In this document: in pieces, positions 7,154 through 41,756 of the stretch | How the letters are laid out: the number at the start of each line of letters is the position of its first letter | Position numbering within the stretch: the first letter of the stretch is position 1 | NCBI GenBank assembly: GCA_016202645.1 | Contig: JACQOF010000097.1 | Coordinates: 16,955-80,954, forward strand | DNA: 64,000 nucleotides | Origin: a bacterium | GTDB taxonomy: Bacteria > Lindowbacteria > 2-12-FULL-62-27 | Direction: 5' to 3' | Translations under genes and position numbers: made by a program | The notes under the pieces: model-generated | What the model saw: only the letters and a program-made list of their open reading frames with translations | Told to the model about the DNA's origin: nothing | Database searches by the model: none

Positions 7154-8146
7154 GTGATGAAGACCTGCGTGGTCCTGGGGAGCAACTGTTTCTCGGGGAG
7201 CCATCTGATCGACGCCCTCATGGACGATCCCCGGTACAGGGTCATCGGCGTCAGCCGGTCGCCGGAGCCGTCGGATCTGTATCTTCCCTACAAGCGCAGG
7301 TCCGCCGGGAATTTTTCTTTCCACAGGTGCGACCTGGCCGCCGGGATGGACGAGTTCATTCCGTGGCTGGACGAGATCCGCCCGGACATCATCGTCAACT
7401 TCGCCGCCCTCAGCGAAGTGTTTCAGAGCAATCTCACGCCGGAGGAATACTACAGGATCAATTGCTCGGCCGTGGTCCAATTGTCCAATGCGCTGAGATC
7501 GAGGGATTATCTGGAGCGCTACGTTCACATATCCTCCGCCGAAGTCTATGGGAATTGCTCCCGGCCTGTTTCTGAATCAGAGCCTCTCCGGCCCACAACG
7601 CCGTATGCGGCCTCCAAAGCCGCCGCGGACATGTATCTGGCCACTCTCATCCGGCATTTCCGCTTTCCGGCCGTCATCATTCGCTCGACCAATGTTTACG
7701 GAATGCGGCAGCAACTCTACAAGATTATTCCAAGAACGGTCATCCGCCTGCGACTCGATGAAAAAATTGAACTGCATGGCGGCGGCTTGATGATCCGGCC
7801 GTTTGTCCACATCCGGGACGTGGTTGCCGGGATTAAAGCGGTCATCGAGCGCGGCAATCCCGGGGAAATCCACCATTTCTCGACGGATCTCCACCTGAGC
7901 ATTTCGGACGTGGTTCGCCGAATCTGCGAGGCTCTCGAATATGACTTCGATGAGTCCACGACGGCGGTGGACGAGCGGAGCGGACAGGACCAGGCCTATC
8001 TGTTGGATGATTCAAAAGCCCGGCGGGAATTGGGATGGGAACCGAAAATATCCTTCGATGAGGGCCTGGAAGAAGTCATCCGGTGGATCGACCGGGACTG
8101 GGATGCCATTCTGGCTGAAACATTGACGTACATCCACCGCCCATGA
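7154..8146 (+). CDS. NDP-sugar 4,6-dehydratase-like SDR
   Basis: VLGSNCFSGSHL, the SSAEVYG segment and YAASKAAADMY are typical of RfbB/Gmd-type dehydratases. Confidence 0.75.
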   Translation: MMKTCVVLGSNCFSGSHLIDALMDDPRYRVIGVSRSPEPSDLYLPYKRRSAGNFSFHRCDLAAGMDEFIPWLDEIRPDIIVNFAALSEVFQSNLTPEEYYRINCSAVVQLSNALRSRDYLERYVHISSAEVYGNCSRPVSESEPLRPTTPYAASKAAADMYLATLIRHFRFPAVIIRSTNVYGMRQQLYKIIPRTVIRLRLDEKIELHGGGLMIRPFVHIRDVVAGIKAVIERGNPGEIHHFSTDLHLSISDVVRRICEALEYDFDESTTAVDERSGQDQAYLLDDSKARRELGWEPKISFDEGLEEVIRWIDRDWDAILAETLTYIHRP

Positions 8147-8682
8147 AGGCCGCGGTCCTCTTCATCCGGTCGGGAACGCTGGATCATTCCCGGAGGCTTC
8201 TCCGCGAGGCCCGGGAACGCCGCCGCCCGGCGGAGGGCGTGGATTGGATTTTGATTCTTCAGCCGGGCGTGGAAAAGGAATTTCAGGATTTCATCCGGGA
8301 AACCGGCGCCGTTGTCCTCACGTACGACCGGCCCGTATTCTCGTTCAATGACCTGAATGCGGCTTTTGGCGCCCGGCTCTCGACCGAGACCTTTCTGGAG
8401 GCCTATGTGCCGTTCAACAACCCGGAAGGCCATGGATATTTCCATATCCTTCGTTTCTTGTCGGGCCTCGGAGTCCCCCGCATTCTGATCCAGCGGGTGG
8501 ATGGGCCCATCGAGGATATGTCCCTGAAAAAATTCGTCCTGCAGCACGCGTTCTTCAAAGCTCTGTGGATTTCGGAAACGGCCATCCTCGTGATTTTAAT
8601 TCCGTTCATCGCCCTCTATTATCTGTTCAAGTCCATTTTCATGCGCCTGCAAAACCGGCTGCGGACCGCGCGAAATGCCTGA
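8143..8682 (+). CDS. Hypothetical protein with C-terminal transmembrane helix
   Basis: ATGA overlap with the upstream gene suggests translational coupling. Hydrophobic C-terminal segment ILVILIPFIALYYLF. No recognisable motif. Confidence 0.5.
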   Translation: MKAAVLFIRSGTLDHSRRLLREARERRRPAEGVDWILILQPGVEKEFQDFIRETGAVVLTYDRPVFSFNDLNAAFGARLSTETFLEAYVPFNNPEGHGYFHILRFLSGLGVPRILIQRVDGPIEDMSLKKFVLQHAFFKALWISETAILVILIPFIALYYLFKSIFMRLQNRLRTARNA

Positions 8683-8731: not shown

Positions 8732-10447
8732 TCAATCCACCGGTGTGGACCAATCCTCGCACTGTCCGCAACGGTCGTAAACCTCGGAATAGCGGCCTTC
8801 CCGGTGCAATCTCCTCCCGGATTCCATTTGATCCCAGATATCTTGAAATGACGTGACCTCCATGACGTTGGCAATCCTCGTATCCGGGGATGGCGCAAAT
8901 ACCCGGTCACACAAAACGATACTGCCATCCGTCTTGATAAACACGCTGCGTGCCAATCGACTGCACATAAACCGTTTTAAAGGAGTATAGACGGCAAGCC
9001 GTTTGTCCGGAGTTTGTCCGGCGTAGGTGGATGCCCCCTGAATGACCAGATGCTCGACCATATGACCTTCTCTGTAATATTGCCGGCGCGCGGAAACCTT
9101 CATGTCATTTGGCGGATTTTTACCCAGCCGGGCCATGTATTGATCGACGCGCGTATAAGAGGACATGAATTCGTCGATGTGATCATCCAATTCCGCAATT
9201 AACGTGGTCGTCAGCGCAACGACGGGATTGACGTTCGCAGTATCCTGGTGTTGCAGGTGATGACGTTTCAGTTCCAGGAAGCGATGAATATTCTTCCGGA
9301 CGGTATGGAAATCACCGCCCGGACGGACTCTGAGGTAATGCTCCTGATCCACCGCGTCCAGGGATATCATCACGGAATAAACAAAAGGGTGCAGCAATTC
9401 CCGGGCGATTTCCTCTGTCAGACATCTCCCGTCTGTATAAATATGGATGGGAGACCATGGGGCTTGGCGCTCCGCCGCCCGCTTGACAATATTCAGAATG
9501 TCCGGAAAGGATGGATTCTGCAATGGCTCGCCCAATCCACTCAAATGCAGGGGTATCCTCTCCCGGCCGGCCAGAGTATATATCCGATCAAAGATTTCGG
9601 GTGTCATGTAGGGGGGAAGAGTATCCGGCTTTCGCCAATGGTTTAAAGGAGAGTAGATCGCCGGATGATCATTGACCGCGGAGACTTCAAGCCAGAGCGA
9701 TCGGATTCGATGAGTTTCCAGAAAATCGCTCGTTTCCTGAAGCGTCAGGATTTTATAAACATCCAGGTGAGACACCGGCTCCTTCAGAATATTGCCGATT
9801 TTTCGATAGGCGCTGATCATGCCCCCATATGTAAAATCGAGCAGCCCACTGCTCAGGAAGTTGGAGTCCGGCTTCCGCCCCCTTTTTTTTGAGATGTCCG
9901 CGCGATACGAGGTGACCGCAGGACCGTACTGAGCATTGAGTGACGTGAATAATTCATGCGGAGATATGGTTGGCCGGGATTCCGCCAGGCTGATCAATTC
10001 CGGCATTTTGGAATGAAGTGAACGATGGATGAGAACCATCTGCCATCCGGTAAAAGCGCCGTTGATCACACAGACATGGTTGTTCCGGCTGGCCTGCTCA
10101 AGCGCGAATTTAAACGCATCCGAATCGAAGAAGGTCGACAAAGGCGGAAGAGGCGCGGTCATCCAGGGCGTGTTCATAACCTGGATGGCGGACTGAAAAA
10201 GCTTAAGGATGGAAGATATATTGAAGATCGAGGTGGATTCACTTGCTTCGATCAACGTAATCGGACGGCCGATCTTCCCAATCTCGTTTTCACAGGCCGC
10301 CCGGGTTTGAGGTGTCACCGCCGCATACACAGACCGAATTTCCTCACAGCTTTCACCTCTCTTCACCACGGCCGCAAACAGGCTCTCCTCTCCAATCGGC
10401 TCAAACCACTTCAAATCAATGGCGGGAATTAACAAGCCGGACGTCAT
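8732..10447 (-). CDS. Radical-SAM-like / SPASM-like protein lacking the CxxxCxxC triad, with unknown ~270-aa N-terminal domain (paralog 1)
   Basis: GGE-type motif HLSGLGEPLQNP. C-terminal SPASM/twitch-like segment FMCSRL..IKTDGSIVLCDR..IANVMEV..W..CGQCEDW. The position of the cluster triad reads LWLEVSAVNDHPAIYSP, with no Cys. Start set at MTSGLLIPA by alignment to paralog 2; the ORF-track ORF extends to 10543. Confidence 0.7.
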   Translation of the reverse strand: MTSGLLIPAIDLKWFEPIGEESLFAAVVKRGESCEEIRSVYAAVTPQTRAACENEIGKIGRPITLIEASESTSIFNISSILKLFQSAIQVMNTPWMTAPLPPLSTFFDSDAFKFALEQASRNNHVCVINGAFTGWQMVLIHRSLHSKMPELISLAESRPTISPHELFTSLNAQYGPAVTSYRADISKKRGRKPDSNFLSSGLLDFTYGGMISAYRKIGNILKEPVSHLDVYKILTLQETSDFLETHRIRSLWLEVSAVNDHPAIYSPLNHWRKPDTLPPYMTPEIFDRIYTLAGRERIPLHLSGLGEPLQNPSFPDILNIVKRAAERQAPWSPIHIYTDGRCLTEEIARELLHPFVYSVMISLDAVDQEHYLRVRPGGDFHTVRKNIHRFLELKRHHLQHQDTANVNPVVALTTTLIAELDDHIDEFMSSYTRVDQYMARLGKNPPNDMKVSARRQYYREGHMVEHLVIQGASTYAGQTPDKRLAVYTPLKRFMCSRLARSVFIKTDGSIVLCDRVFAPSPDTRIANVMEVTSFQDIWDQMESGRRLHREGRYSEVYDRCGQCEDWSTPVD

Positions 10448-10589
10448 TTCAAACCCTCTGACTCCGGGATCCTGTCCACCCATCCCATCCTCCTCTCTCA
10501 CACTGCGTGAATGGCGGACATTGCACCTGATCGTGGATAGCAAGTCAAGAATTCGATTCGCGTCATGGGGTCGTGGACGGCTTATGAGA

Positions 10590-12410
10590 TCATGAGATCA
10601 GGGCAGCCTCCAGGGCGTCTAGAAAGGGGTCGATAAAGGTCCGCGCGGCCCGGACCGCCTGCTGCCGCCGGCCGGCATGGTCCCTTTCCGGCTCGATCCG
10701 GAGTACCGTTTTCAGCCGGATCCCGATATCGTAAGAACCCATCGTGGCCATGTCGTCCAGCGATATGCCGCAGATGTCCCGCAAGTCCTGAAAATCGTCG
10801 AGCCTGTCGAGTTCGCGGCGGACATGGCGCAACCGAAGGATCGACGCGTTCCGATCAATATCGTGGCCCACGGCCGCACAGCGCGCAAGTCGGTCATCAA
10901 TGTCATTACGGTCAGATATCCGGCCGTGAGCGGCCCTGTTCAGAAACTCCTCCACGCTCATGAGCGGATATCCCTTCAGAACCGCGCCCCGGCTGTTGCC
11001 GATGACCGCGCAGGCAATGCCGGTGTCGGCGGAGGCACTTTCCATCCAGTGTTTATACATCAGCAGAACCCGGTTCGTGTCGACCCGCCCGCCGGAGTAT
11101 GCCTGGACTTTCACGCGGGCTTTATCGGATACGTCCGAATAAACTCGATATTCCGGCGGTATAAAACGGCTCGGCTGTGGAAACATGCTTCGGTACTGGT
11201 TGCTGGATCGGCTGTGGGTCAGGCGGCCGGGATAAGACAGATCCACGCCGACCAATCCAATGGGCCGGCATCCGGCTCTCCATGCCAGGTCAAAAGCCGC
11301 GGTGATGACGGAGCCGCCGTTCTGAAGAAACCCGGTATGTGTCCGCAGGATATGTTCGAGCAGGGGCAAAAGGCCATTCTTGAATTCAACCACCCGGTCG
11401 CCCGTTTGGGTCAGAAGATGTCCGGTCATTGACATGATTCGCCGCCGCGCGGGATACCGGACAGGGATCAGGGGATGGCAGAAACTGTCAAACAGCAGGA
11501 TGGATTCATGCGCCGGAAGGTTCTCAAAGTCCCTGACGTTGGCGGGCAGGGAATCGACGGCAAGGATGACGTCCGGGATGACCCCGGCGGCCAGCAACGT
11601 GGCCAGTGCGGTGTCAACCGCGATGATCAGGCTTCGGGGTCGCAGACGGGCCAGCGTATCCATGTTGTCATCGAGACTGGGGCCGGCGCCCACGAGAACC
11701 GCCGGAATATCCTGAAACGCGCCATGAAATCCACGGACCGGCGCGGACGTCAGCAGCGGCTTCAGGTTCTCAATCAAATTCCGGTTCCAAATGTCCCATA
11801 AAACGGATTTGGTCCGTTCATCGATATCGATCTCATTTAGATGGCGCGCCACGACGGCCCGGAGATTGTTCAATTCGACTGAGAAAATGTCCGCGTAGGA
11901 CGACAATGATTGAATATGGCCGGATAGATCAAGCCCATCCTGATGAAACTCCCGAAGGGCCTGCACGGCCAGGTCGTCCGCCCGCCGACCCGCGACCAGT
12001 TTCACCCGGGCGTCGCCCAGCAGGGCCCGCAGATCGACGCATTCCAGAAGGCTCCGGAAAATCCGTATGTCGGGTTCAACCATAATGATCCCGCCGCCGG
12101 CCGGCAGGCGTCCCAGGACCGCTTCCGCCAGATATCCCATTCCAATACCGAATACAACGTGCGCGGCAGGCGCCCGTCCGGGCCGCGGGACACCCTGCGC
12201 CATCCGCTCCGCTTCCCTGACGGGATCGCGCGGACTGTGAATGTATTTTCCGCATAACCGAAAATTGTTGATGCGTCCACCGCCCCGGTCATCGCCGTGA
12301 ATCCATTCAATGTCCGGATGCCCCCCGGCGCGGGCCAGCTCCTCGGCCAGGTCCGGGTACCGATGTTTGAGAATCAGCAGGTGATCAGAGAGGTGAGTGT
12401 GCTGTTTCAT
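10590..12410 (-). CDS. Maf-type (motility accessory factor) / DUF115 MptE-like putative nonulosonic-acid glycosyltransferase
   Basis: DUF115 core AVLVGAGPSLDDN ... IIAVDTALATLLAAGVIPDVILAVDS ... GGSVITAAFDLAWRAGCRPIGLVGVDLSY. ~600 aa, as in Maf proteins. Confidence 0.7.
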   Translation of the reverse strand: MKQHTHLSDHLLILKHRYPDLAEELARAGGHPDIEWIHGDDRGGGRINNFRLCGKYIHSPRDPVREAERMAQGVPRPGRAPAAHVVFGIGMGYLAEAVLGRLPAGGGIIMVEPDIRIFRSLLECVDLRALLGDARVKLVAGRRADDLAVQALREFHQDGLDLSGHIQSLSSYADIFSVELNNLRAVVARHLNEIDIDERTKSVLWDIWNRNLIENLKPLLTSAPVRGFHGAFQDIPAVLVGAGPSLDDNMDTLARLRPRSLIIAVDTALATLLAAGVIPDVILAVDSLPANVRDFENLPAHESILLFDSFCHPLIPVRYPARRRIMSMTGHLLTQTGDRVVEFKNGLLPLLEHILRTHTGFLQNGGSVITAAFDLAWRAGCRPIGLVGVDLSYPGRLTHSRSSNQYRSMFPQPSRFIPPEYRVYSDVSDKARVKVQAYSGGRVDTNRVLLMYKHWMESASADTGIACAVIGNSRGAVLKGYPLMSVEEFLNRAAHGRISDRNDIDDRLARCAAVGHDIDRNASILRLRHVRRELDRLDDFQDLRDICGISLDDMATMGSYDIGIRLKTVLRIEPERDHAGRRQQAVRAARTFIDPFLDALEAALIS

Positions 12411-12561: not shown

Positions 12562-14658
12562 ATGGGAATTCGTGCGGAGGTACCCAGGAAAATTTATTTT
12601 GCGGACTTGACGCACACCGCGCAAGGCATCAGTGCGGCGACGTTCCCGCTGGGCGTCAGTTTTGTCGCGTCCTACGCGAGAAAGATGCTGGGGCCGGCCT
12701 ATGACGTCCGCCTTTTTAAATTTCCAAACGATCTGGATGAGGCCCTCAGAGAGGATCCGCCCGATTTTCTCGGCATGTCCAACTACAGTTGGAATTTTCG
12801 CCTGGCGTCGACGGCGGCCGCGGCCGCGAAACGCCGGGATCCGCGTCTAACGGTGATTTTCGGCGGCCCTAATTTCCCCATCGATCCTGGTGAAAAAACG
12901 GATTTCCTGACAAACCATCCATCGATTGATTTCTATGTCGAGCTTGAAGGGGAACTTGGATTTGTAGCGCTGATCCAGGCCTTGGAACGGAATGGCCGGG
13001 ATGCGGGCCGCCTGAAGGAATCCGGCGAGAAAATCCTGAATACCACGTATCTTTCGGATGGGGTCCTGATCAGCGGTCCCATCGAGCGGATCCACGACGT
13101 CAATCTGATTCCATCCCCCTATTTGACGGGGGTGCTAGACCACTTTTTTACTCAGCCGCTCGCGCCGATGATCGAAACCACCCGCGGGTGTCCTTTCACC
13201 TGCACGTTTTGCGCGGACGGCCTGGACATCAAAGGCCAGGTGCGCCGGTTTACGGACGGCCGCGTCCGGGAGGAGTTGCGGTATATTGCCGGGAAAATCC
13301 GGAAAAGCGATGAGATCATCATCACGGACCTGAATTTTGGCATGTACAAGGAGGATCGGGAGACCTGCGAGGCCATCGCCGACGTTCAACGAACGTATGA
13401 CTGGCCGGTTCTGGTCAAGGGGTCGGCCGGAAAAAACAAGCCGGAACGGATCATTGAAGCCGCGTCGATTCTCAAGGGATCGTGGCTGATCGGATCGTCC
13501 ATCCAGTCGTCCGACCCGGACGTCCTCAGGTCCATCAAGCGCGGGAACATCTCCCGGGAGGCGTTCACGCGGTTTATCGAGTACGGAAACAGCCTCAGCG
13601 GAGATTCGCTGACGTATACGGAGATCATCCTGGGCCTGCCGGGCGACACACGGGACAAGCATTTCGAGTCACTCCGCTACGGCGTTGAGAACCGCGTCAA
13701 CAGCCTGCGGATGTATCAGGCCATTTTGCTCATGGGTACGGAGATGGCCACGCCGGAGTGCCGCCGGCAATTCGGTTTAACCACCCGATTCCGAACGATT
13801 CCGGGATGCGTGGGCATCTACCGGTTCCTGGGCGAGGATCTGCCGGTGGCTGAAATCGAGGAGATCATCGTCGGAAGCCGCACAATGTCCTTCTCGGACT
13901 ATGTGGACTGCCGGGTGATGAATCTCTTCATCGAGACGTTTTACAACAATGCTCTCTTTGAGGAAGTTTTTCAAATGGTTCGAACATTGGGAATGTCCGT
14001 ATTTGACTGCCTGGTCTATATGAAAACCCATCCGGAATTATACAGCCCTAAAATTCGCTCCGTCCTGGACAGTTTTGTGAATCAAACGCAGAACGACCTC
14101 TATGAAACATTGGAACAGGCGGAGTCCCGTCTTCTGACGCCGGAGATCATCAACCGGTACATCGGCGGCGAAATGGGGATCAACGAGCTTTTGGTCCACA
14201 AGGCCTGTCTCTATCTGGAACTCGACGACCTCGCGGATCTTCTTCGGAAATCCGTCCGGAGCATTCTGGAGGAAGCCGGGCTCTATACGCCTCCCGTGGC
14301 GGAATACCTGGGTCAGCTGATTCGATTTTTGGTCCATCGAAAAAAGAACATCACGAATACCCGGCACAGGATCGCTGACCGGTTCACGTACGATTTTGAG
14401 GCCTTCAGTCAGCTCGATTACCGGGTTGACCCCAACCGGATTGCCCCTGGAAACGAAATCGAATACGTTTTTTTTCATGATGACAAACAGCAAAAACATA
14501 TCCAGACCCAGTACACCCTGTATTCGGATACGCCCATGGGGTTGGGCCGTTTTATTCAGAGATGTAATTTCAAGAAAATGTACAGACGCTTTCGCCCACA
14601 ATCCATCGAGTCCCGGTCGGCGCCGGATCCGGCGGTCCTGGCGTCCCAGACCGCCTGA
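12562..14658 (+). CDS. B12-binding-domain radical SAM protein (paralog 1)
   Basis: N-terminal B12-like Rossmann region (LGMSNYSWNF ... VIFGGPNFP ... DFYVELEGELGF). Cluster motif TTRGCPFTCTFCADG (CxxxCxxC). ~250-aa C-terminal extension. Clear paralog of 29992-32139. Confidence 0.8.
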   Translation: MGIRAEVPRKIYFADLTHTAQGISAATFPLGVSFVASYARKMLGPAYDVRLFKFPNDLDEALREDPPDFLGMSNYSWNFRLASTAAAAAKRRDPRLTVIFGGPNFPIDPGEKTDFLTNHPSIDFYVELEGELGFVALIQALERNGRDAGRLKESGEKILNTTYLSDGVLISGPIERIHDVNLIPSPYLTGVLDHFFTQPLAPMIETTRGCPFTCTFCADGLDIKGQVRRFTDGRVREELRYIAGKIRKSDEIIITDLNFGMYKEDRETCEAIADVQRTYDWPVLVKGSAGKNKPERIIEAASILKGSWLIGSSIQSSDPDVLRSIKRGNISREAFTRFIEYGNSLSGDSLTYTEIILGLPGDTRDKHFESLRYGVENRVNSLRMYQAILLMGTEMATPECRRQFGLTTRFRTIPGCVGIYRFLGEDLPVAEIEEIIVGSRTMSFSDYVDCRVMNLFIETFYNNALFEEVFQMVRTLGMSVFDCLVYMKTHPELYSPKIRSVLDSFVNQTQNDLYETLEQAESRLLTPEIINRYIGGEMGINELLVHKACLYLELDDLADLLRKSVRSILEEAGLYTPPVAEYLGQLIRFLVHRKKNITNTRHRIADRFTYDFEAFSQLDYRVDPNRIAPGNEIEYVFFHDDKQQKHIQTQYTLYSDTPMGLGRFIQRCNFKKMYRRFRPQSIESRSAPDPAVLASQTA

Positions 14659-14674
14659 AGACATCCCCACCCTT

Positions 14675-15898
14675 TTGGACTTGAAACCCGCCGCGGCGCT
14701 CTCCTTTCCGGATCGGATTCTGCTTGCTCTGCTTAAATTCTCCTTCAGACTGCTCCAATCCGTGGTGGATATTCGTGTCGGAATGCTCACCGCGGAGAGA
14801 CTGGGGCATCTGGTCCTCGATGCGGAAGACTGGATGCGCAGCTCGATCAACTCATCCCGGGGCATTCCTCAAATCTCCCTGTTTTTTTGCGGGCGGTCCT
14901 GCAACCCGCGGCTTCTGGGCATGCTGAAACGCCAAATGTCCATCTGGAGCGGCCTCCCGGCGCTCCGGCTGTACGAATTGTTGACGACAAGGGTTCTTCC
15001 CGCGGCTTCACGGATTGAATTCAAAAAACATCAGGAAGCCGACTGGGAAATGTGGACACATGGACGGCCGAATCTGACGTTTACGACTGCCGAAAAGAGG
15101 GAAGGGGAAGCGTTATTAAGATCCATGGGGATTCCGGAGGGATCACCGTTTGTCTGCATCCACACCCGGGATTCCGCCTATTTGGAGGATGGCAGATCGG
15201 TCCGGTCGAGAATGGGGGATTGGCGGTACCATGACTACCGCGATGGCCAAATCGAAAATTATCTGCCGGCGGCCGAGTGGCTCGCCGATCAGGGCTTTTT
15301 TGTGCTGAGAATGGGCGCGGTGGTCGAGCGCCCGATTCCGAGTCGTCATCCACGGGTGATCGACTATGCCTCCCGCCATCGGACGGATTTAGGCGACGTC
15401 TATCTCATGGCGAATTGCCGTTTTTATATCGGCAGCACCTCCGGCCTTCTGGTCCTGGCCATGGCCTTCAACATTCCCTACGTCATGATCAATACGGTGC
15501 CGTTGATGTTAAAAGCCTCCAGCGCCCGGGATCTGTTCATTCTCAAAAAATACCGAAGCATCCGGGAGAACCGCATCCTGACCTTTCCGGAAATTTTTTC
15601 CAGCGGCGGTCACCGCTGGATGACGACGGCAAGCTTCGAGCGCGCGGAGATTGAACTCGTCGAAAATTCAGCGGAGGAAATTCTTGCCGTCACGCGGGAA
15701 ATGAAGGCCCGCCTGGACGGGACTTGGGTATCGACTCCGGAGGATGAGCTCTTACAAGCCCGGTTTGACGCCCTTTTCCCGCCGGCCAGTCCCTATGCCG
15801 GACATCCTTCAAGAATTGGCGCCGAATTTCTGCGCCGGAATGCGGACCTCCTGGAGGCCGGAATACCGGCGGGTGCGCGCAAGGCGGTTGCCGGATGA
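14675..15898 (+). CDS. TIGR04372-like putative glycosyltransferase (paralog 1)
   Basis: Strong similarity to 37975-39168, e.g. WRYHDYRDGQIENYLPAAEWLADQGFFVLRMGAV..HPRVIDYASRHRTDLGDVYLMANCRFYIGSTSGL. The family name is from memory. Start uncertain: TTG at 14675 just after the upstream stop, or ATG near 14779. The ORF-track start at 14396 overlaps the upstream gene. Confidence 0.6.
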   Translation: MDLKPAAALSFPDRILLALLKFSFRLLQSVVDIRVGMLTAERLGHLVLDAEDWMRSSINSSRGIPQISLFFCGRSCNPRLLGMLKRQMSIWSGLPALRLYELLTTRVLPAASRIEFKKHQEADWEMWTHGRPNLTFTTAEKREGEALLRSMGIPEGSPFVCIHTRDSAYLEDGRSVRSRMGDWRYHDYRDGQIENYLPAAEWLADQGFFVLRMGAVVERPIPSRHPRVIDYASRHRTDLGDVYLMANCRFYIGSTSGLLVLAMAFNIPYVMINTVPLMLKASSARDLFILKKYRSIRENRILTFPEIFSSGGHRWMTTASFERAEIELVENSAEEILAVTREMKARLDGTWVSTPEDELLQARFDALFPPASPYAGHPSRIGAEFLRRNADLLEAGIPAGARKAVAG

Positions 15899-17088: not shown

Positions 17089-18258
17089 ATGCCCGGATAT
17101 GATTTGTTTGACCGGCGGGAGATGGAAAGCCTGCAACGCTTGTTTGAGGAGGGGGGCTTGCTCAATCGATATGCGGCCCAACTGCGCGGGCGGTCTTATG
17201 TGGAATCCTTCGAGGCGGCCATCCGGCAGACCTATTCATTCCGGCAGACCCTGGCCGTCAGCTCCGGCACGGCGGCTTTAAAATGCGCTCTCAAGGCCTA
17301 CCGCGTGGGTCCGGGAGACGAAGTGATCCTTCCGGCTTTCGGATATATCGCCGCCGCCCTGGCGGTCCTGGACGTGGGCGCTGTTCCCAGGTTTGTTCCA
17401 ATGCGGGACCCGTATACCATGGACTCTCGGGCTCTCCCTCGACTTTTGTCCGGAAAAACAAAAGCGGCCTGTTTGATTCACATGCTCGGCGTGTTTCATG
17501 CGCCGCCGGACGTCGTGGATTTTTTTGCCGGGCGGGACATTCCGCTGATCCATGACATGGCCCAATGTTTCGGCTCGGAAATTCCTCCAATCTGGGCCGC
17601 CGACCGGCTGCATGCGTTTGTTTTCAGTTTCGATTTCAATAAAACGATCACCACCGGAGAAGGCGGGATGCTGGCCGTGGCCGACCCGGATCTTTTTCAA
17701 ACGGCCCACGCCTACAGCAACATGGGTCATGAAAACCGGCCGGGCCTCCCGAAATACCTCGATCCGCCGCTCATGCCCGGAATTAATTTCCGGATGGGCG
17801 AGATGGAGGGATGCCTGGGCCTGGTGCAATTGGAGAAATTTTTGAGACTCAGGTCTCCCCGGCAAAAGTTTGTGACCGAGCTGGAGATCCTGCTCTCGCA
17901 TGCGGGCGCCTCCATTCCTCGTCCGGCGCTCGCCGCCGTCAACGGCGATTACGCGACGTTGGAGATGGCCTCTGCGGAGGAAGCGGAATCGGCGCGCCGG
18001 CATTTGGTTTCAGAGGGCGTCGAGGTCCGAACCCTCCCCAATGGACTTCAGTGGAACTGGTGCGGCAACTGGGGCCATTTGGGGCCGGATGTTCTTTTAT
18101 CGTCCTATCCGAAAGCGGACCGGGATTCCGACCGCGCTCTGCTGGAACGCTGCATTGCCGTCTGCGTGCATTTTGGAAAGGAGGAATCCTGCCGGCAGAT
18201 TCTTGAGCGCTGGCGCCGCGCTAGGACGGAAGGGCGCAGTTTGAATAAAACTGTCTGA
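17089..18258 (+). CDS. DegT/DnrJ/EryC1/StrS-family PLP-dependent aminotransferase
   Basis: Fold-type I sugar aminotransferase pattern: LAVSSGTAALKCAL, IHDMAQCFG, and PLP-lysine region SFDFNKTITTGEGGML. Confidence 0.75.
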   Translation: MPGYDLFDRREMESLQRLFEEGGLLNRYAAQLRGRSYVESFEAAIRQTYSFRQTLAVSSGTAALKCALKAYRVGPGDEVILPAFGYIAAALAVLDVGAVPRFVPMRDPYTMDSRALPRLLSGKTKAACLIHMLGVFHAPPDVVDFFAGRDIPLIHDMAQCFGSEIPPIWAADRLHAFVFSFDFNKTITTGEGGMLAVADPDLFQTAHAYSNMGHENRPGLPKYLDPPLMPGINFRMGEMEGCLGLVQLEKFLRLRSPRQKFVTELEILLSHAGASIPRPALAAVNGDYATLEMASAEEAESARRHLVSEGVEVRTLPNGLQWNWCGNWGHLGPDVLLSSYPKADRDSDRALLERCIAVCVHFGKEESCRQILERWRRARTEGRSLNKTV

Positions 18259-19390
18259 TCTGATCCGCCACGTAGCGAATCTCATCTTCCTCCAGATATT
18301 GATGAATGGGCAACGACAGGATCGCGCCCGCCTGCCGCTCAGATACCGGGAAATCCCCGCGGCGATAGCCCAGATGCCGTGCCGCCTCCTGCAAATGAAT
18401 CGGGATCGGATAATGAACTTTGGTCTCAACGCCCCGGTCTGACAGGAACGGAATGAGGGTCTCCCTGAATTTCACCTGAAGGACATAAGTGTGGAAAACC
18501 TGCCGGACATCCTCGCGTCTTGGGGGAATCGTGACGAAGGGCTGCAAGTCCGAAAGGAGGTGGTCATACAGCGCCGCGTTCCGGATTCGTTTTTCGGTGA
18601 CGTCATCCATGTTTTCGGCCAACTTGAGGAGGAGCGCGGCCTGAATCGAGTCGAGCCGGGAGTTCAAGGCAAAAAAAGCGCATTCATCCCGGTTGACGAG
18701 GCCGTGATTTCTCCACAATCTCAGCTGCTCCGCGATCTCCTCCGAGTTCGTGGTAACCGCGCCGCCGTCTCCCCATCCATTGAGGTTTTTGAGGGGATGG
18801 AAGCTGAAGGCCGCCGCGACTCCCAGAGATCCCGACGGGCGGCCCCGGTAGACGGCATCGATCGCCTGTGACGCGTCCTCGATAACGTGAAGCCGATGCC
18901 GGTTTGCGATATCCAGAATCGGATCCATATCCGCCGGCAGGCCGGTCAGATGAACCGGGATAATCGCCCGTGTCCTGGGCGTGATGCGGCCAACGATTTG
19001 CGCCGGATCGATGGTGTAATCTTCCCGCACATCCACGAACACCGGCCTGGCACGGGTTTGCGCGATGGCGCCGGCGGTGGCGATGAAGCTGTTCGGCGCG
19101 GTGATGACCTCGTCGCCATCTCCGATCCCGCAGGCCCGCATCGCCAAAATGAGGGCGTCCGTTCCGGAGGCCACGCCGACGGCAAACCGCGCGCCGCACC
19201 GGGCCGCCAGAAACGCCTCGAATCGCTCAACCTCTTTTCCGAGCGTAAACTGGCCGGACTTCACCACGCTCTCGACACCCTCGAACAACGTTCGCAACGC
19301 CGCCGGCCCGGCAAACTGCCGGTCCAGATAGGAATAGCGAACGATTTTCCGTGTTTCGGTTGGGATTCCCCTCGATTGAAGTCTGGTCAT
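18221..19390 (-). CDS. DegT/DnrJ/EryC1/StrS-family aminotransferase (PseC/PglE-like)
   Basis: VGVASGTDALILAM, VIEDASQAIDA and FSFHPLKNLNGWGDGGAV are classic motifs. The 3' end overlaps the convergent aminotransferase gene by 38 nt. Confidence 0.85.
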   Translation of the reverse strand: MTRLQSRGIPTETRKIVRYSYLDRQFAGPAALRTLFEGVESVVKSGQFTLGKEVERFEAFLAARCGARFAVGVASGTDALILAMRACGIGDGDEVITAPNSFIATAGAIAQTRARPVFVDVREDYTIDPAQIVGRITPRTRAIIPVHLTGLPADMDPILDIANRHRLHVIEDASQAIDAVYRGRPSGSLGVAAAFSFHPLKNLNGWGDGGAVTTNSEEIAEQLRLWRNHGLVNRDECAFFALNSRLDSIQAALLLKLAENMDDVTEKRIRNAALYDHLLSDLQPFVTIPPRREDVRQVFHTYVLQVKFRETLIPFLSDRGVETKVHYPIPIHLQEAARHLGYRRGDFPVSERQAGAILSLPIHQYLEEDEIRYVADQIRQFYSNCALPS

Positions 19391-19497: not shown

Positions 19498-21234
19498 ATG
19501 TGTCTTGAAATGACTGTGTCGGCCGGGCTGATCATCCCTGTGTTTGATTTGAAATGGTTCGAAACAATTGGTGAAGAGCACCGGTTTTTGGCCGCCGTTC
19601 GGAATGCGCAGAGGTGCGCTGAAATCCGATCCATTTTTGCGGCTGTCACACCGCGGACGCGAAAGACCTGCGAAATCGAAATTCAAAAATTTGGACTGCC
19701 GGTTACGCTTTTGGAAATGGGTGATTCCATTCCCAGACAGACGGCGTTGCTGTTGAAGTTCTTTCAAGCCGCTTTCGAATCTGGAGAAACGGAGTGGCTG
19801 GTCGGCCTGGCAGCGCCCTATTCCAGCTTTTTTGACAGGCAGGCGTTTACATTTGGTCTGCAGATGGCCGTCCGGGCCAATTCCACATCCGCGGTCTGTG
19901 GAGCCATTCCCGACTGGTCGATGTTGTTTTTACACCGGTCGGTCATTCCCGGATTGAACAATTTGATCCATCTCGCCGAATCCTGCGACGGCGAAAATTT
20001 ACATTCGGTGCTTCAGACGCTGAATGACCGGTATTCGGTTTTGATCCACGCTTACCGGGCGGAAATTTCCAAGTCGCTGGGCAAAGCGTTTAACGCCGGC
20101 TTGTTTAGGAGCTGTTTTGTCTCCTATTCCGGCAAGACAATCGATCATTACCGAAAAATAACCGAACGGTTGGGTTGCCCGCTTTCCGAATTGCGAATGG
20201 ACAGGATTCATGGCCTTCTGGAAACGGGTGATTTCTTAAACGTGGGTCGACCGAATTCCCTGTGGGTTGAAATTTCCGCGGTCAACGATGTTCCTCCCAT
20301 CTACTCACCGTTAAATCATTGGAAAATCCCGAAAGAGTATCCCCCCTATATGCCCTTCCCCGTATTCTCCAGGCTGTGGAGCCTGGTGACCTGGGATATC
20401 GCTTCCTGCCCTGCCATACATCTGGGCGGATTGGGAGAACCGCTGCAGCATCCGGATTTCATGGAATTTTTGGAGCTGATCCATCATACGCAGGAGGGAG
20501 GGGCATTAATTCCCAATGTTCACTGCTACACGGATGGCCGATGCCTGACCGAAGACATCGCGCGGAAACTCGTTCTGGGTGTCATCCAATCCGTCATGAT
20601 TTCACTGGATGCCGTGGAAGAATCCTATTACCGGAAGGTCCGGCCGAACGGTGATTTTCAGGCGGTGAAGAGGAATCTGGATCAACTGCTGGAATTGAAG
20701 AGGCAAAAGCAGGCGCAGGGGAAGGGTTCGGGAGTGCTGCCGGGCGTGGCCCTCGCGACCACGATGATATCCGAGCTGGTAGATCATCTGGATGCCTTCA
20801 TGACGTCCCATATGACGCTCCACCGCTTTGGCTTGAAACTCGGTAAGAATCCCTTGCTTGAAGCCAAGCGGGCCAGTGCGGCTCAATATTTTAAAGAGGG
20901 GCACGTCGTCGAGCATCTGGTCATTCAGGGCGCATCGACCTTTGCCGGCCAAAATCCGGACCGGCGGCTTGCCATCTACACCCCACTCAAACGCTTCGCC
21001 TGCCGCCGGTTGTCCCAGACGCTTTTTGTCAAGACGGACGGGAGCATCGTTTTATGTGACCGGGTCTTTTCCCCGGACGCATCAACCCGGATCGGAAATG
21101 TGATGGAGGTCGACACGTTGCAGGAACTCTGGGATCGCCTGGATTCGAAACGGCGGATGCACAGCGATGGAAAATATACGGAAGCGTATGAAAGATGTGG
21201 TTCTTGCGAAGACTGGTTTATACCGGTCGACTAG
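19498..21234 (+). CDS. Radical-SAM-like / SPASM-like protein lacking the CxxxCxxC triad (paralog 2)
   Basis: Collinear with 8732-10447 over the full length: LIIPVFDLKWFETIGEE..., LWVEISAVNDVPPIYSP, HLGGLGEPLQHP, FACRRL..KTDGSIVLCDR..IGNVMEV..W..CGSCEDW. An alternative ATG lies at 19510. A TTGACA-N17-TACAGA promoter-like string sits at 19470-19498. Confidence 0.7.
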   Translation: MCLEMTVSAGLIIPVFDLKWFETIGEEHRFLAAVRNAQRCAEIRSIFAAVTPRTRKTCEIEIQKFGLPVTLLEMGDSIPRQTALLLKFFQAAFESGETEWLVGLAAPYSSFFDRQAFTFGLQMAVRANSTSAVCGAIPDWSMLFLHRSVIPGLNNLIHLAESCDGENLHSVLQTLNDRYSVLIHAYRAEISKSLGKAFNAGLFRSCFVSYSGKTIDHYRKITERLGCPLSELRMDRIHGLLETGDFLNVGRPNSLWVEISAVNDVPPIYSPLNHWKIPKEYPPYMPFPVFSRLWSLVTWDIASCPAIHLGGLGEPLQHPDFMEFLELIHHTQEGGALIPNVHCYTDGRCLTEDIARKLVLGVIQSVMISLDAVEESYYRKVRPNGDFQAVKRNLDQLLELKRQKQAQGKGSGVLPGVALATTMISELVDHLDAFMTSHMTLHRFGLKLGKNPLLEAKRASAAQYFKEGHVVEHLVIQGASTFAGQNPDRRLAIYTPLKRFACRRLSQTLFVKTDGSIVLCDRVFSPDASTRIGNVMEVDTLQELWDRLDSKRRMHSDGKYTEAYERCGSCEDWFIPVD

Positions 21235-22036
21235 TGGGGACAAGATAGTTTCTCTGACGGAAGTGGAGCGTATCCTGCGCGCTGCCGCGGACATCGTCCA
21301 TTGCATTTACAGGCAGGGGACGGATTCTTCCAGAAAGGCCGACGGCTCCTATCTGACCCGCGCCGATACCGAGGCAAATCAATTCCTGCAGCAGGAACTC
21401 CTCAGGATCCTTCCGGCCGCGGCGTGGATATCCGAAGAAAGCGCGGCTGACGCGGACCGTCTGAAAAAGGACTGGGCCTGGGTGGTTGATCCGCTGGATG
21501 GAACGAAGGAATTTGTGCGCCGCGTCCCGGAATTCGCCATTTCGGTTGGGCTGGTTTTCCGACAGCAGGTCCGGCTGGGGGGGATTGTGAATCCCGTGAC
21601 GGGAGAAGGCGCCGTGGCCGAAGTCGGCGGCGAGTCCCGTTTTTGGAATCTCCCCACGCCCCGCGCGCCGGCGGCGGCGCTTGCGGAGGCATATGCTTGT
21701 GTGAGCCGGACGGAAACGGAGAAGGGTCTTCTCAAGCCGTATCTGAACATGGTGGGGTTCACACAGCCGGTGGGAAGTATCGCCTACAAGTTGTTGCGGG
21801 TGGCGGCCGGCGTGGATCATCTGACATTTTCCGTCGAGCCGAAATCCGAATGGGACATCTGTGGGGGTGTTGCGTTGCTCACCGCGGTCGGGAAGACGTA
21901 TCGCCGTCTGGACGGCCGCCCATTGCGGTTCGGACAGCCGGATCTTCGGATTCCCTGCGGAGCCGCCGCCGGCCCTGAAACCCTGGTATCGGCGTTTGTG
22001 TCGTCCTGGGAACGCTTATTTTCCGGCGTCCGCTGA
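21188..22036 (+). CDS. cysQ: Inositol-monophosphatase-family 3'(2'),5'-bisphosphate nucleotidase (CysQ-like PAP phosphatase)
   Basis: WISEES, WVVDPLDGTKEF and WDICGGVALL motifs. Start uncertain (21167 or 21188; both overlap the upstream gene end). The stop overlaps the sulfotransferase start (TGATG). Confidence 0.65.
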   Translation: MKDVVLAKTGLYRSTSGDKIVSLTEVERILRAAADIVHCIYRQGTDSSRKADGSYLTRADTEANQFLQQELLRILPAAAWISEESAADADRLKKDWAWVVDPLDGTKEFVRRVPEFAISVGLVFRQQVRLGGIVNPVTGEGAVAEVGGESRFWNLPTPRAPAAALAEAYACVSRTETEKGLLKPYLNMVGFTQPVGSIAYKLLRVAAGVDHLTFSVEPKSEWDICGGVALLTAVGKTYRRLDGRPLRFGQPDLRIPCGAAAGPETLVSAFVSSWERLFSGVR

Positions 22037-29991: not shown

Positions 29992-32139
29992 CTATGCGGA
30001 GGGGGAGGATCCCATCAGGCCTGAAGCCACGAGGGGGGCCGCGGCGGCGTCCTCCGCCGGCCCGGCGATTCGCAGTGCGTTCCTGAAGAATTCACGGACG
30101 GTGACGACGCGGGACAAAATAATTCCCAATCCGATCGGGGACGATCCATATCGGCGGATGGCGTTTTTCAATATCGTTTGCTGGGTTTCCGTATGAGAGA
30201 AAAGATACCTGACGGCGCTGCCGCCGGGTCGGTGATAGTCCTCCAGCGGCCGTGCATGCCGTTCTTCCTTCCAGCCCAAAATATCATATTGAAATTCCAC
30301 TTCCCGGCGCTCCAACTGACTTGCGATTTCAAAAAGATTCGACAGTTTATGCCAGATAAACGTTCGAATATCCGCCAGTTCGGCCCGGCACATCGCCCGA
30401 TCCTCTTCGGTGGAATATTTTGCGGCCAGGAGCTTCAAAGCCGTCGAAATGCCGTAGTCCAGAAAATCCTCAAATGCGTAGACAAATATCTTCCCGCAAG
30501 TGTTGAAGAGCAGATTTCCGCCGCTTTCGCCGTTCGTCAGTTTCCGATAGTTTTCGGGTTTTTGATAAAAGGCGTTGATCTCCTCAGGACTGTCCCAGAC
30601 TTCCTCCTTTGTGGCCTTGATAAAATCCGCGAGGGTCTGCCGCAGCCCCGATGGGGCGGAATGGTCAATCTGGCTGTACATTTCAGTCAGCCAATCAAAA
30701 GGCGATATTTCTTTTTGGGTTAAATATTCCAGGAGTTCGACGAAATAATCATCGTTGTAATAACAGGCCGCCATCAAGTGAAATCCCCGCAGATACAGGT
30801 AATCCTCAAAGCGCAGCGTATTCGTTTCCGTGCACACTTCCTCGATTTCAATCGCCTGTATTCCGTGATAGGTCCCGAAATCGCGCGGGATAATTCGGAA
30901 TTTCCCCTTCATTCCATATCGCGCGCGGCTTGCCGGCGAGTTCAATTCCGTTCCGTCGAGCATCATCAGCGTGTGCATCCGGATGTTTTTGACGCCGGTA
31001 TGGATGAGCGCCTTCATGCCCCGCAGGTAGCTCTCCCGCGATTCGCCCGGCAAACCGAGAATGACCTCCGCATAGGAATGCCGCCCGCGGCTTTTTAAAT
31101 CGTCGTGAATTTTCATGTAGGTGTCCAGCTTGATATTGGACCGGCGGATATTTTTCAAAACGTTTTCGTCCATCGATTGTACCGACATGCTCATGGTGAT
31201 CCCGCTGCCGATGGTTTCGATGGCCTCCACAATGCGCTCATGCTTGTTTTTCCCGGTCGTCACGGAAATATTGGTTGGCCATCCCGTTTTTTCCCTCACC
31301 TGGCGGATGGTCCGGCAAATTTCAAAATCCTGCGGATACATCGCGAAATTCGAATCGGCCACCTGCAATGTCTTCACCAGGGAGTCGCGCATTCTCTCCC
31401 CGATATAGGCGAGTTCTTCCTTGATTCGTTCCGGGCTGAAGATATGGACCTTGTTGAAATAGTCCGCGCCCTCGTGACAGAAGGAACAGGTGAAGGGACA
31501 CCCGCGGTTGGATTGGATCATGGGTGTGAGGCGGCCGTCAAAAAAGGCGTCCAGAGCGCCGGATAAATAGGGAGACGGGATTTCATCCAAATTTTTAATC
31601 CGGTCCGGCAGGCCCCCCCGGACCAGAAGCCGGCTTTCGGCGGAATAAAAATGGCAGCCAAGGATCGGGGACTGTTTCATTTTTTGGATGTCCCCGCCGC
31701 AGTTCATGAACCGTTCGATTAATTTGCTGAAAGAGATCTCCCCCTCCAGGTGAACGTAGAAATCGACAAAGGGCCTCTTTTTTAAATAGGTGTCCTGGTC
31801 TTTCTCATTCGCCGGATATCCCGATCCGCCCCAAACCGTCACCGGCGCCGGCCGGCGGCTTTCCTTCCCGAATTTCAATATCGCCTCGGAAAGCGCGCTG
31901 CACCAGGGATAATTGCTGAGGCCGAGAATGTGGGGGGTTTCCTCCTTGAGCGCTGAAATGAGATCATCCGGGTATTTGAACAAACGGATGTCCACTTCGT
32001 CCCGGAATATTTTTCGAGCGTAGGTTGATACGAAACCGATGTTCAACGGAAAGATATCGGAGGCGATCGATACAGATGTATGCGAAAGATCCCCCAGATA
32101 TATTTTTATTCCGGCGATGGCCCTGTCCCCCCTCCCCAT
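29992..32139 (-). CDS. B12-binding-domain radical SAM protein (paralog 2)
   Basis: SNRGCPFTCSFCHEG cluster motif. The N-terminus IYLGDLSHTSVSIASDIFPLNIGFVSTYARK aligns with IYFADLTHTAQGISAATFPLGVSFVASYARK of 12562-14658. Confidence 0.8.
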   Translation of the reverse strand: MGRGDRAIAGIKIYLGDLSHTSVSIASDIFPLNIGFVSTYARKIFRDEVDIRLFKYPDDLISALKEETPHILGLSNYPWCSALSEAILKFGKESRRPAPVTVWGGSGYPANEKDQDTYLKKRPFVDFYVHLEGEISFSKLIERFMNCGGDIQKMKQSPILGCHFYSAESRLLVRGGLPDRIKNLDEIPSPYLSGALDAFFDGRLTPMIQSNRGCPFTCSFCHEGADYFNKVHIFSPERIKEELAYIGERMRDSLVKTLQVADSNFAMYPQDFEICRTIRQVREKTGWPTNISVTTGKNKHERIVEAIETIGSGITMSMSVQSMDENVLKNIRRSNIKLDTYMKIHDDLKSRGRHSYAEVILGLPGESRESYLRGMKALIHTGVKNIRMHTLMMLDGTELNSPASRARYGMKGKFRIIPRDFGTYHGIQAIEIEEVCTETNTLRFEDYLYLRGFHLMAACYYNDDYFVELLEYLTQKEISPFDWLTEMYSQIDHSAPSGLRQTLADFIKATKEEVWDSPEEINAFYQKPENYRKLTNGESGGNLLFNTCGKIFVYAFEDFLDYGISTALKLLAAKYSTEEDRAMCRAELADIRTFIWHKLSNLFEIASQLERREVEFQYDILGWKEERHARPLEDYHRPGGSAVRYLFSHTETQQTILKNAIRRYGSSPIGLGIILSRVVTVREFFRNALRIAGPAEDAAAAPLVASGLMGSSPSA

Positions 32140-40799: not shown

Positions 40800-41756
40800 T
40801 TAGAGGGGGGTGTCTATGGCGTTGGCGAAGCGGTTCAATGAAGTCAGGAAGCGTGTTTTCAATGTTCGACCGCCGTGAGTTGGACCCCGGTAGGACTCGT
40901 GGGGGTTGACGATTCGGCGAAATCCCGAATAGTCGCATTTGGCGCATAACGGAATCGCCGCGCGGTCGCCGGCCAGCAATCTTCGCCGGATCTCCCGGAA
41001 CCGGTCGCAGAACCAGATGTCCTTGAGACTTTGCGCCCTCACGCTGCCAATTCGTTCGGAGAAATAAAAATCATGTTCGCACAGTCCCACGACGCCTTCC
41101 GCGCTGATCATGATTTTTTCAAACGGCCTCTGGCAAAACGATTTTAAGGGCCGCGACAGGACGGAACCGTTGGGACTGGAGCCGGCGCGATTGTTTAATT
41201 GCGCCGTCAGTTTCCGGCGGTTCAGCCGGACCCGGCCGGGAAAGTCCGGCGCCACCACATCCATAAAGCTCCGAATATTCGGAAACACCGTATCGGTATC
41301 GGAGTAGTTGTTGATTTCCAGAATATCCAGGCCGTTTTCCAGGAGAAGCCGGCCAAGATCATGGGTCAGAGACTTGCCGTTGGTCATGACATGCAATGAG
41401 GCGTTCGAGCAGACCCGCCGGGCCATCGCGACCCAGCGCGGCAGGCGTTTGTCGAGAAGGGGTTCGGTATTGATAAAAAAACAGAGCCGTCCTGTGTACT
41501 TCAGGCCGCCCAGCTCGTCGATGATTTTTTGAAATATGTCTTCCGGCATGGATACATCGGGTCTGGTGTCGAACTGCGCCGCCGCCGCGCAAAAAGAGCA
41601 CGTCCCATTACACTTCTTGCGAAGTTCCAATTCCACGGTATTGAACAGGGCCGGCCGGTTGGCGTCGAAGTGTGCCCGGCCGACCGCCAGCGAAAGTTTT
41701 TCTTTGATCAGGCGTTTCATGCGCCGTTTGATGGTCTGAAGCATGGGTCTGAGCAT
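40800..41756 (-). CDS. Radical SAM protein with SPASM/twitch-like C-terminus
   Basis: ELELRKKCNGTCSFCAAA (CxxxCxxC). C-terminal CQRPFEKIMISAEGVVGLCEHD...IGSV...IW...PLCAKCDY. Confidence 0.8.
   Translation of the reverse strand: MLRPMLQTIKRRMKRLIKEKLSLAVGRAHFDANRPALFNTVELELRKKCNGTCSFCAAAAQFDTRPDVSMPEDIFQKIIDELGGLKYTGRLCFFINTEPLLDKRLPRWVAMARRVCSNASLHVMTNGKSLTHDLGRLLLENGLDILEINNYSDTDTVFPNIRSFMDVVAPDFPGRVRLNRRKLTAQLNNRAGSSPNGSVLSRPLKSFCQRPFEKIMISAEGVVGLCEHDFYFSERIGSVRAQSLKDIWFCDRFREIRRRLLAGDRAAIPLCAKCDYSGFRRIVNPHESYRGPTHGGRTLKTRFLTSLNRFANAIDTPL

Follow-up and report, generated by a model that had tools for sequence, protein, structure and literature searches.

Radical SAM-like proteins without a cysteine triad: a divergent clade with a cytidylyltransferase-like fold and a BtrN-type twitch domain

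Closest described systems

Radical S-adenosylmethionine (SAM) enzymes that act on sugars offer the nearest described parallels to two paralogous proteins, A and B, encoded in the 64,000-nucleotide stretch of bacterial DNA analysed here (contig JACQOF010000097.1, positions 16,955 to 80,954; hereafter the window, with positions counted from its first letter). A and B are homologous to such enzymes and carry no CxxxCxxC cysteine triad for the SAM-cleaving cluster. The founding twitch-domain radical SAM enzyme is BtrN (PDB 4M7T/4M7S), the 2-deoxy-scyllo-inosamine dehydrogenase of butirosin biosynthesis, a pathway in which oxidation by BtrN is followed by transamination by BtrS. BtrN has the same single-cluster C-terminal cysteine pattern as A and B, ending in CxxC. 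It differs from them in possessing the triad (EVNSQCNRTCWYCPN) and forming a radical, where A and B have asparagine, proline and serine, and in having no N-terminal cytidylyltransferase-like domain. DesII (PDB 8HZV) and BlsE (7VOB) use nucleotide-linked (activated) sugars as substrates, which fits the genomic context of A and B. However, both enzymes have canonical triads, belong to other sequence families and lack a cytidylyltransferase-fold domain. The cytidine monophosphate (CMP)-sugar synthetases and related enzymes KdsB, NeuA, PseF, IspD and TarI have their fold in common with the N-terminal ~250 amino acids of A and B, whereas the clade of the window proteins has no sequence-level match to them and a nucleotide-binding loop that is shorter and without the basic residues.

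Triad-less proteins resembling radical SAM enzymes are already recognised in the names of curated families. One of these, TIGR04321 ('spiro-SPASM'), has the same three-part architecture as A and B: an N-terminus of ~250 amino acids, a radical-SAM-like barrel and a C-terminal Fe-S domain. Its sampled members also occur in sugar-nucleotide contexts, like A and B, but true members differ in being about 500 amino acids long. The haloarchaeal TIGR04347 'pseudo-SAM/SPASM protein' expresses the same pseudo-enzyme concept, on a comparison by family name only, and no specific relationship to it was seen (E = 0.14 for B, no match for A). A literature search found no published function for TIGR04321, nothing mentioning spiro-SPASM or TIGR04321, and nothing describing a cytidylyltransferase-fold, radical-SAM and twitch architecture. 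As far as we have checked, three things are new: the divergent clade to which A and B belong, the assignment of a cytidylyltransferase fold joined to a BtrN-like twitch core, and the repeated loss of the triad alongside an invariant twitch site.

Loss of the radical-cluster triad in A and B

Paralogue A is encoded on the minus strand at 8732..10483 (stop codon 8732-8734), within an intact open frame that spans 8732-10543. Translation from an in-frame methionine at 10447 gives 571 amino acids, and from the ATG at 10483 it gives 583. The latter is the likelier start, because a Shine-Dalgarno-like GAGGAGG lies upstream of this ATG and the length agrees with the 583-amino-acid database gene call P0002. 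A previous model-made description of the window, drawn from its letters alone (the sequence-only reading), had placed the gene at 8732-10447 with no strand stated; the gene is real and its proposed start is an in-frame methionine, although the start at 10483 is now preferred. Paralogue B is an intact open frame on the plus strand at 19498..21234 that encodes 578 amino acids. Aligned along their whole length, A and B show 49% identity (E = 0). Publicly, B is annotated as P0001, a call of 397 amino acids that begins at an internal start and lacks the entire N-terminal domain; the homologues are all full length.

Both proteins score above the Pfam cut-offs for Radical_SAM (PF04055; 36.8 and 33.7 bits for the two paralogues, cut-off 29.5) and SPASM (27.1 and 29.3 bits, cut-off 21.5). 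The alignments to Radical_SAM enter the profile at positions 25 and 52, past the triad. A whole-protein motif search found neither CxxxCxxC nor the looser Cx(2-12)Cx(1-4)C anywhere in A or B. In the family alignment, the three columns that hold cysteine in 16 relatives and in BtrN are occupied in the window proteins by asparagine, proline and serine (N263, P267 and S270 in B). The former cluster-binding loop is represented by the cysteine-free LWLEVSAVNDHPAIYSPLNHW in A (9635..9697, minus strand) and by LWVEISAVNDVPPIYSPLNHW in B (20260..20322, plus strand). No profile alignment placed a functional triad in either protein, and homology to radical-SAM/SPASM proteins is significant by Pfam, NCBIfam, Foldseek and PDB profile searches alike, so the central claim of the sequence-only reading, that A and B are radical-SAM/SPASM homologues which have lost the triad, stands.

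Errors of sequencing or assembly do not explain the missing cysteines, since normal triads (CPFTCTFC, CPFTCSFC and CNGTCSFC) are present in three further radical SAM genes of the window and the cysteine-free loop is kept in every close homologue, from independent samples. The same argument had been made from the likeness of the loop in the two paralogues, and it extends to all of the close homologues. Having no triad for a SAM-cleaving cluster, A and B would be unable to start radical chemistry themselves, and we infer that they cannot cleave SAM reductively.

Other landmarks of the fold are retained. The GGE-type SAM-contact motif (GLGEP) is kept in both proteins, as HLSGLGEPLQNP in A and HLGGLGEPLQHP in B (20419..20454, plus strand; located by translation and family alignment), and its presence would be no proof of SAM binding. 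The remaining motifs that the sequence-only reading had picked out were all recovered: SVMISLDAV, DGSIVLCDR, I(A/G)NVMEV, CGxCEDW and LWLEVSAVNDHPAIYSP / LWVEISAVNDVPPIYSP. Only the spacing before the second of these had been misjudged, being C-x11-DGSIVLCDR (C-x17-C) and not C-x13.

A one-cluster twitch domain and a BtrN-like core

The linker and twitch domain occupy 8735..9067 in A (minus strand; by cysteine count and alignments), with cysteines at positions 495, 513, 560 and 563, and 20899..21231 in B (plus strand; by alignments and the BtrN profile match), with cysteines at 502, 520, 567 and 570. In B the pattern reads C502-x12-G515-x4-C520 ... C567-x2-C570, and the chain stops eight amino acids past C570. 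Twitch domains hold one auxiliary cluster and SPASM domains hold two (PMC10470005). A SPASM domain is expected to have seven to eight cysteines, including CX2CX5CX3C; A and B have four and end after the CxxC, even though Pfam SPASM matches them. A twitch domain shows Cx9-15Gx4C ... CxxC with about four cysteines and no second cluster motif, and this is the pattern of A and B. Because the CX5CX3C part is absent, the cysteines number four and the chain ends early, the domain is of the BtrN type, a one-cluster twitch rather than a full SPASM domain. An earlier description of the C-terminus as SPASM/twitch-like therefore survives in its twitch half only, and the accompanying count of just four cysteines was exact for each paralogue. 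These four should between them fully ligate one [4Fe-4S] cluster, a content predicted from the cysteine pattern. The clade has just one further invariant cysteine, C40 of the N-terminal domain, which the wider family does not conserve.

An AlphaFold2 model of B built on an alignment of 58 family members had a predicted local distance difference test (pLDDT) score of 92.7 and a predicted template modelling (TM) score of 0.90. It replaced a model made from seven sequences (pLDDT 71), in which the triad loop and the twitch domain were disordered; the two models gave the same two groups of Foldseek matches. Searched against the PDB with Foldseek, the C-terminal two-thirds of the 58-sequence model matched DesII first (2e-9), together with CteB, ChlB, BtrN, SkfB and anSME. 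For BtrN, E was 6e-8 and the target-normalised TM-score 0.71.

Profile searches agreed on the same relatives. BtrN was the best solved relative of a profile made from the C-terminal halves of 19 family members, with E = 1e-28 in two stretches, and DesII and BlsE were both matched by the family profile. In the barrel stretch of the BtrN match, the BtrN segment EVNSQCNRTCWYCPN falls on the family triad. In the twitch stretch (1.4e-10), VLPCFEDF...LCKNCNN falls on C520, C567 and C570. Profiles of the close clade alone found no match among PDB sequences, BtrN included, and BtrN was seen only once distant relatives had been added.

The N-terminal domain comprises amino acids 1-250 of B (19498..20247, plus strand), with which amino acids 1-243 of A (9719..10447, minus strand) align. 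It has a cytidylyltransferase fold by Foldseek and hhalign, and in both paralogues the usual signature for binding the nucleotide (CTP) is lost. The modelled N-terminus of B matched KdsB 1h7e, IspD 2xwl, TarI 6xhq, a Leptospira cytidylyltransferase (6oew) and NeuA 9t4z in the PDB, at Foldseek probability 1.0 and TM-scores normalised to the target of 0.5-0.6. By hhalign, the window-clade N-terminus also proved homologous to that of the remaining 46 relatives (probability 97.1%, E = 6e-11), and a Pfam CTP_transf_3 or NTP_transf_3 match is present in 8-10 of the 58 aligned proteins, A and B being among the 58. For the window clade itself, this domain drew no match from Pfam or NCBIfam, and neither domain-only nor full-length close-clade profiles matched it to a PDB sequence. 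Where an Arg/Lys-rich basic loop would follow strand 1, the clade has the shorter LIPAxDLKWFEPIG, which lacks those basic residues. The sequence-only reading had recognised no motif in a domain of ~270 amino acids; sequence families are indeed silent here, the fold can now be placed, and the length is about 245-250 amino acids. An origin of the domain by recent duplication of the PseF cytidylyltransferase encoded nearby was considered and dropped (hhalign probability 3%).

Family relationships and repeated loss of the triad

Word-indexed searching yielded just 7 proteins from one sequence and 11 from a 58-sequence profile, all with uninformative names. Five close homologues outside the window were found by word-indexed searching, at 44-48% identity, one of them from Candidatus Lindowbacteria. 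An exhaustive HMMER search of 1.84 billion representatives brought the family into view, with only 18 proteins below 1e-30 and 1,081 below 1e-10. From its top 150 matches we assembled the family alignment, which holds 58 proteins of 480-660 amino acids (A and B included) with the same architecture.

All 58 of these proteins match the TIGR04321 model, and for each it is the best family match. In NCBIfam it leads the matches of both A (78.2 bits) and B (95.9 bits), far under its cut-off of 250, so the window proteins are relatives of TIGR04321 and not members. The likeness to spiro-SPASM suggested in the sequence-only reading is therefore borne out as the best available match and stops short of membership. 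Five proteins that were checked do pass the cut-off, at 355-435 bits (P0099, P0103, P0146, P0035 and P0128). The triad is intact in three of the five; P0103 keeps two of its three cysteines and P0146 keeps one. On these comparisons, the close clade of A and B is best placed as a deep, rare and separate branch of an uncharacterised family whose named core is TIGR04321.

Loss of the triad is the common state in this family. A canonical triad (of the ELTNDCNLxCxxCPR type) is present in 16 of the 58 proteins, and other residues occupy the cysteine columns in 42. By contrast, the four twitch cysteines, R499 and G515 are invariant in 58/58. Two positions vary along with the triad: the asparagine of the TNG motif is kept in 16/16 triad-bearing versus 12/42 triad-less proteins, and the glutamate of the GGE motif in 16/16 versus 29/42. 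When the C-terminal 283 columns were used to build a neighbour-joining tree, triad-less proteins fell in at least five separate branches, a count that is provisional because the tree is rough. The loops that replaced the triad are unrelated between triad-less lineages (DDNLPDRLRSP, DDPLPDTLLRP and VNDVPPIYSP).

Within the close clade, a seven-sequence alignment (44-49% identity) has 120 invariant columns. The invariant share is 7% in the N-terminal domain, 36% in the former triad loop, 22% in the barrel, 69% in the linker at 466-500 (a 35-residue block) and 28% in the twitch domain. Invariant loop residues are S260, V262, N263, D264, P266, Y269 and S270, followed by PPYM, and the invariant C-terminal cysteines are C502, C520, C567 and C570. 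Selection was read from invariant columns, synonymous sites being saturated at 44-49% protein identity, and this reading indicates that the A/B clade is under purifying selection.

The close clade is rare and comes from uncultivated bacteria of the Lindowbacteria type. In the genome collection scanned it occurs in two Candidatus Lindowbacteria genomes only. Scans for close relatives yielded three genome loci and five metagenome loci; metagenome loci L017 and L018 share a 507,730-bp contig with genome loci L005 and L007, and three short contigs were truly added. With so few close-clade loci, co-occurrence statistics are only anecdotal. Candidatus Lindowbacteria RIFCSPLOWO2_12_FULL_62_27 (MFPR01000004.1; L005 and L007) encodes two triad-less paralogues with ~20 kb between them, so a duplication like that of the window is found elsewhere too.

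Possible roles of the triad-less proteins

We read A and B as non-radical, Fe-S-bearing accessory proteins that would bind sugar nucleotides, and give this reading a probability of about one half. The idea of a scaffold or substrate-binding pseudo-enzyme, already raised in the sequence-only reading, is consistent with the lost triad, the retained twitch domain and the sugar context; the role itself is where interpretation begins. Under such a scheme, the cytidylyltransferase-like domain and the barrel could bind a CMP- or nucleoside diphosphate (NDP)-activated sugar or a partner protein, and the twitch cluster could stabilise the fold or relay electrons. Candidate partners are the nearby tailoring enzymes described below, namely the B12-binding radical SAM methyltransferases, the stand-alone BtrN-like enzyme and the DegT aminotransferases, and a small protein with a C-terminal hydrophobic helix may be a further one. 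Triad-bearing family members look like BtrN/DesII-style radical enzymes that act on activated sugars in nonulosonic-acid pathways. An accessory role is favoured over new catalysis because independent lineages swapped the triad loop for unrelated sequences. The simplest explanation of the repeated loss is that the role retained today, whether of a binding domain or of a cluster domain, was already present in the triad-bearing ancestor.

Several points weigh against an accessory role. No partner gene is universal, and the contigs of P0007 and P0010 have no other radical SAM gene within reach. The co-occurrence of BtrN-like proteins is not specific to triad loss, as they are also found beside triad-bearing fusions (L008 and L012). 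The cytidylyltransferase similarity of the window clade is at fold level only, since profile searches of PDB sequences and of the PseF domain in the window came back empty. Retention of the four cysteines may be purely structural, and the strong conservation of the loop within the clade could equally mark a new active site. The literature search found no experiment on any member of the family.

A wider proposition concerns the whole family, and we advance it tentatively, as something somewhat short of an even chance. It holds that the family has discarded its radical cluster repeatedly and its auxiliary cluster never, and that the module of barrel and auxiliary cluster would have its own, non-radical role in the tailoring of nonulosonic-acid glycans. 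The module might serve B12-radical SAM and other tailoring enzymes as a dedicated redox relay or by carrying CMP-sugars, and a conserved 179-amino-acid partner may anchor it to the membrane.

If the conserved loop does mark a new active site, A and B could be neofunctionalised non-radical enzymes, in which the barrel with its cysteine-free loop acts on an activated sugar by twitch-cluster redox or by polar SAM-dependent transfer. We think this unlikely, while granting that a fair number of features agree with it. The loop residues and PPYM are invariant in the close clade, where 36% of loop columns are invariant as against 22% for the rest of the barrel; the AlphaFold2 loop has a pLDDT above 94; the GLGEP motif is kept; and DegT aminotransferases stand beside the gene, as in the order of BtrN and BtrS. 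However, loops that are unrelated across lineages would need several origins of a common catalytic site. A cluster ligated by four cysteines would also offer no open iron site for Lewis-acid chemistry, and members without the triad show relaxed conservation at the TNG and GGE positions.

An active cytidylyltransferase is a much poorer fit. The N-terminus would then make a CMP- or NDP-sugar, with the C-terminal half as a regulatory or structural appendage, and the resemblance in fold to KdsB, IspD, TarI and NeuA would be explained, as would the CTP_transf_3/NTP_transf_3 matches of 8-10 of the 58 relatives. We regard this as very unlikely for the window clade: the domain has no Pfam, NCBIfam or PDB sequence match there, its Arg/Lys-rich loop is replaced by the shortened LIPAxDLKWFEPIG, only 7% of it is invariant within the clade, and these loci have other genes for genuine cytidylyltransferases.

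The chance that A and B are cryptic radical enzymes, which would hold their cluster through non-cysteine ligands or receive it in trans from a partner subunit, seems slimmer still. Non-canonical cluster-binding arrangements do exist among other radical SAM enzymes, and the barrel and GGE motif are kept here. Yet the loop is without any cysteine, C40 is not conserved beyond the clade, and the two residues that go with the triad, the asparagine of TNG and the glutamate of GGE, are relaxed where the triad is gone. Finally, although decay usually shows first in the loss of a catalytic motif, a functionless relic is effectively refuted by the conservation pattern, both frames being full-length and intact, with 49% mutual identity, 44-48% identity to independent samples, 120 invariant columns and a triad-less state that persists in two paralogues of a Lindowbacteria genome.

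If a barrel and auxiliary-cluster module with its own role is confirmed, these proteins would form a new functional class, the Fe-S pseudo-radical-SAM proteins. The roles of auxiliary clusters in SPASM/twitch radical SAM enzymes have been described as "largely enigmatic" (PMC10470005). The triad-less family amounts to a natural deletion experiment, performed repeatedly, in which the radical cluster is gone and the auxiliary site and barrel are under selection. Because the one cluster is lost and the site of the other is kept, the family is a natural system for asking what an auxiliary-cluster module does alone. The uncharacterised spiro-SPASM family, spirochaete proteins included, also gains an architecture (cytidylyltransferase fold, BtrN-like barrel and twitch domain) and a pathway context in nonulosonic-acid and Maf-type glycosylation islands. 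For most of the family, the automatic label 'radical SAM protein' is misleading.

Gene neighbourhoods

In the window, A and B lie in a glycan island that extends from ~0.9 to 41.8 kb; housekeeping genes (FtsK, PNPase, RibF, IF-2 and NusA) begin at about 46.9 kb. The core sugar pathway of the island consists of a NeuB-type nonulosonate synthase (28921-29982, minus strand) and a PseF-PseG-like fusion (27177-28898, minus strand), the latter being the genuine cytidylyltransferase of the island; both were assigned by domain matches. HldE- and GmhA-like heptose genes, several epimerases, about six methyltransferases and two DegT aminotransferases are also present. Paralogue A stands directly downstream of, and on the same strand as, a gene for a Maf / MptE-like (PseD-like) putative nonulosonic-acid glycosyltransferase (10590..12410, minus strand; PF01973 at 2e-32 and a weak FlagModPseD match). 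This pair is divergent from the gene for B12-binding radical SAM protein 1 (12562..14658, plus strand), which is one gene away from A and, by domain matches, of the KedN5-like C-methyltransferase type with the triad CPFTCTFC. A second B12-binding radical SAM protein of the KedN5 type (29992..32139, minus strand; domain matches) has the triad CPFTCSFC and is 32% identical to the first. Paralogue B is divergent from a DegT-family aminotransferase gene (18221..19390, minus strand), a pairing repeated in L004 and L006.

Beside paralogue A, on the plus strand at 8143..8682, is the gene for the 179-amino-acid protein with a C-terminal hydrophobic helix, for which Pfam and NCBIfam gave no match, even with the threshold relaxed to E = 10. 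Proteins of this kind, hydrophobic-helix proteins of ~175 amino acids, are the most consistent neighbours of triad-less genes and were found in five loci: the window, L001/L014, L002, L003 and L019. Their genes lie at 12847-13389 in L001, 5176-5676 in L002, 3992-4522 in L003 and 3948-4484 in L019, where the start of the gene overlaps the stop codon of the triad-less gene.

The third radical SAM gene of the window with a normal triad (CNGTCSFC) encodes a stand-alone radical SAM-twitch protein of 318 amino acids (40800..41756, minus strand), placed in the BtrN-like group by the family C-terminal profile (3.7e-30). Triad-bearing stand-alone BtrN-like proteins co-occur with the family in the window, L008, L011 and L012. 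In the window this gene is flanked at the island edge by genes for ABC_tran_2/12TM-type and CsgG-like proteins (39155-42756).

Close-clade loci elsewhere contain genes for NeuB, CTP_transf_3, DegT, HldE/SIS and DUF4910 proteins, methyltransferases and sulfotransferases, and in every case found the context is a nonulosonic-acid glycan island. In L002 and L015 the immediate divergent neighbour is a B12-binding radical SAM gene; the Lindowbacteria locus has one at a distance of 8 kb. Loci of distant members, with and without the triad alike, contain NeuB, CTP_transf_3 or DegT genes, often also with a triad-bearing stand-alone BtrN-like protein.

Several other genes of the island form sets of their own. 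Two TIGR04372 glycosyltransferase paralogues, 45% identical, are encoded at 14396-15898 (plus strand) and 37975-39168 (minus strand). The real start of the first is probably internal, as the listed frame overlaps the end of the B12-binding radical SAM gene. A TIGR04372 homologue also adjoins the Lindowbacteria triad-less gene. A scheme in which A and B are each paired with one B12-binding radical SAM protein and one TIGR04372 paralogue was judged too weak, with distances of up to 17 kb and orthology unresolved. A complete set for sulfate activation and transfer comprises a CysQ-like phosphatase, two sulfotransferases, ATP sulfurylase and APS kinase (21167-25881 and 36535-38001), which within a pseudaminic-acid/Maf-type island suggests a sulfated glycan; a sulfotransferase is also encoded in the P0007 locus. 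Directly downstream of the ATP sulfurylase/APS kinase genes, on the same strand, is a gene for a 349-amino-acid protein that consists of a pyruvate-kinase barrel domain only (23226-24275, minus strand). A DUF4910/DUF2172/HTH_47 protein (33154-34431, minus strand) is 71% identical to its copies in L002 (9950-11236) and L003 (8901-10193). Its neighbours are only 25-48% identical, a contrast that suggests either unusually strong constraint on the gene or its recent transfer.

Outside the island, the gene at 44761-46137 (minus strand) joins an HTTM/LMF1-like membrane domain to a DCC1-like thiol-disulfide oxidoreductase; it adjoins a gene of the fatty-acid-hydroxylase family (43908-44747), also outside the island.

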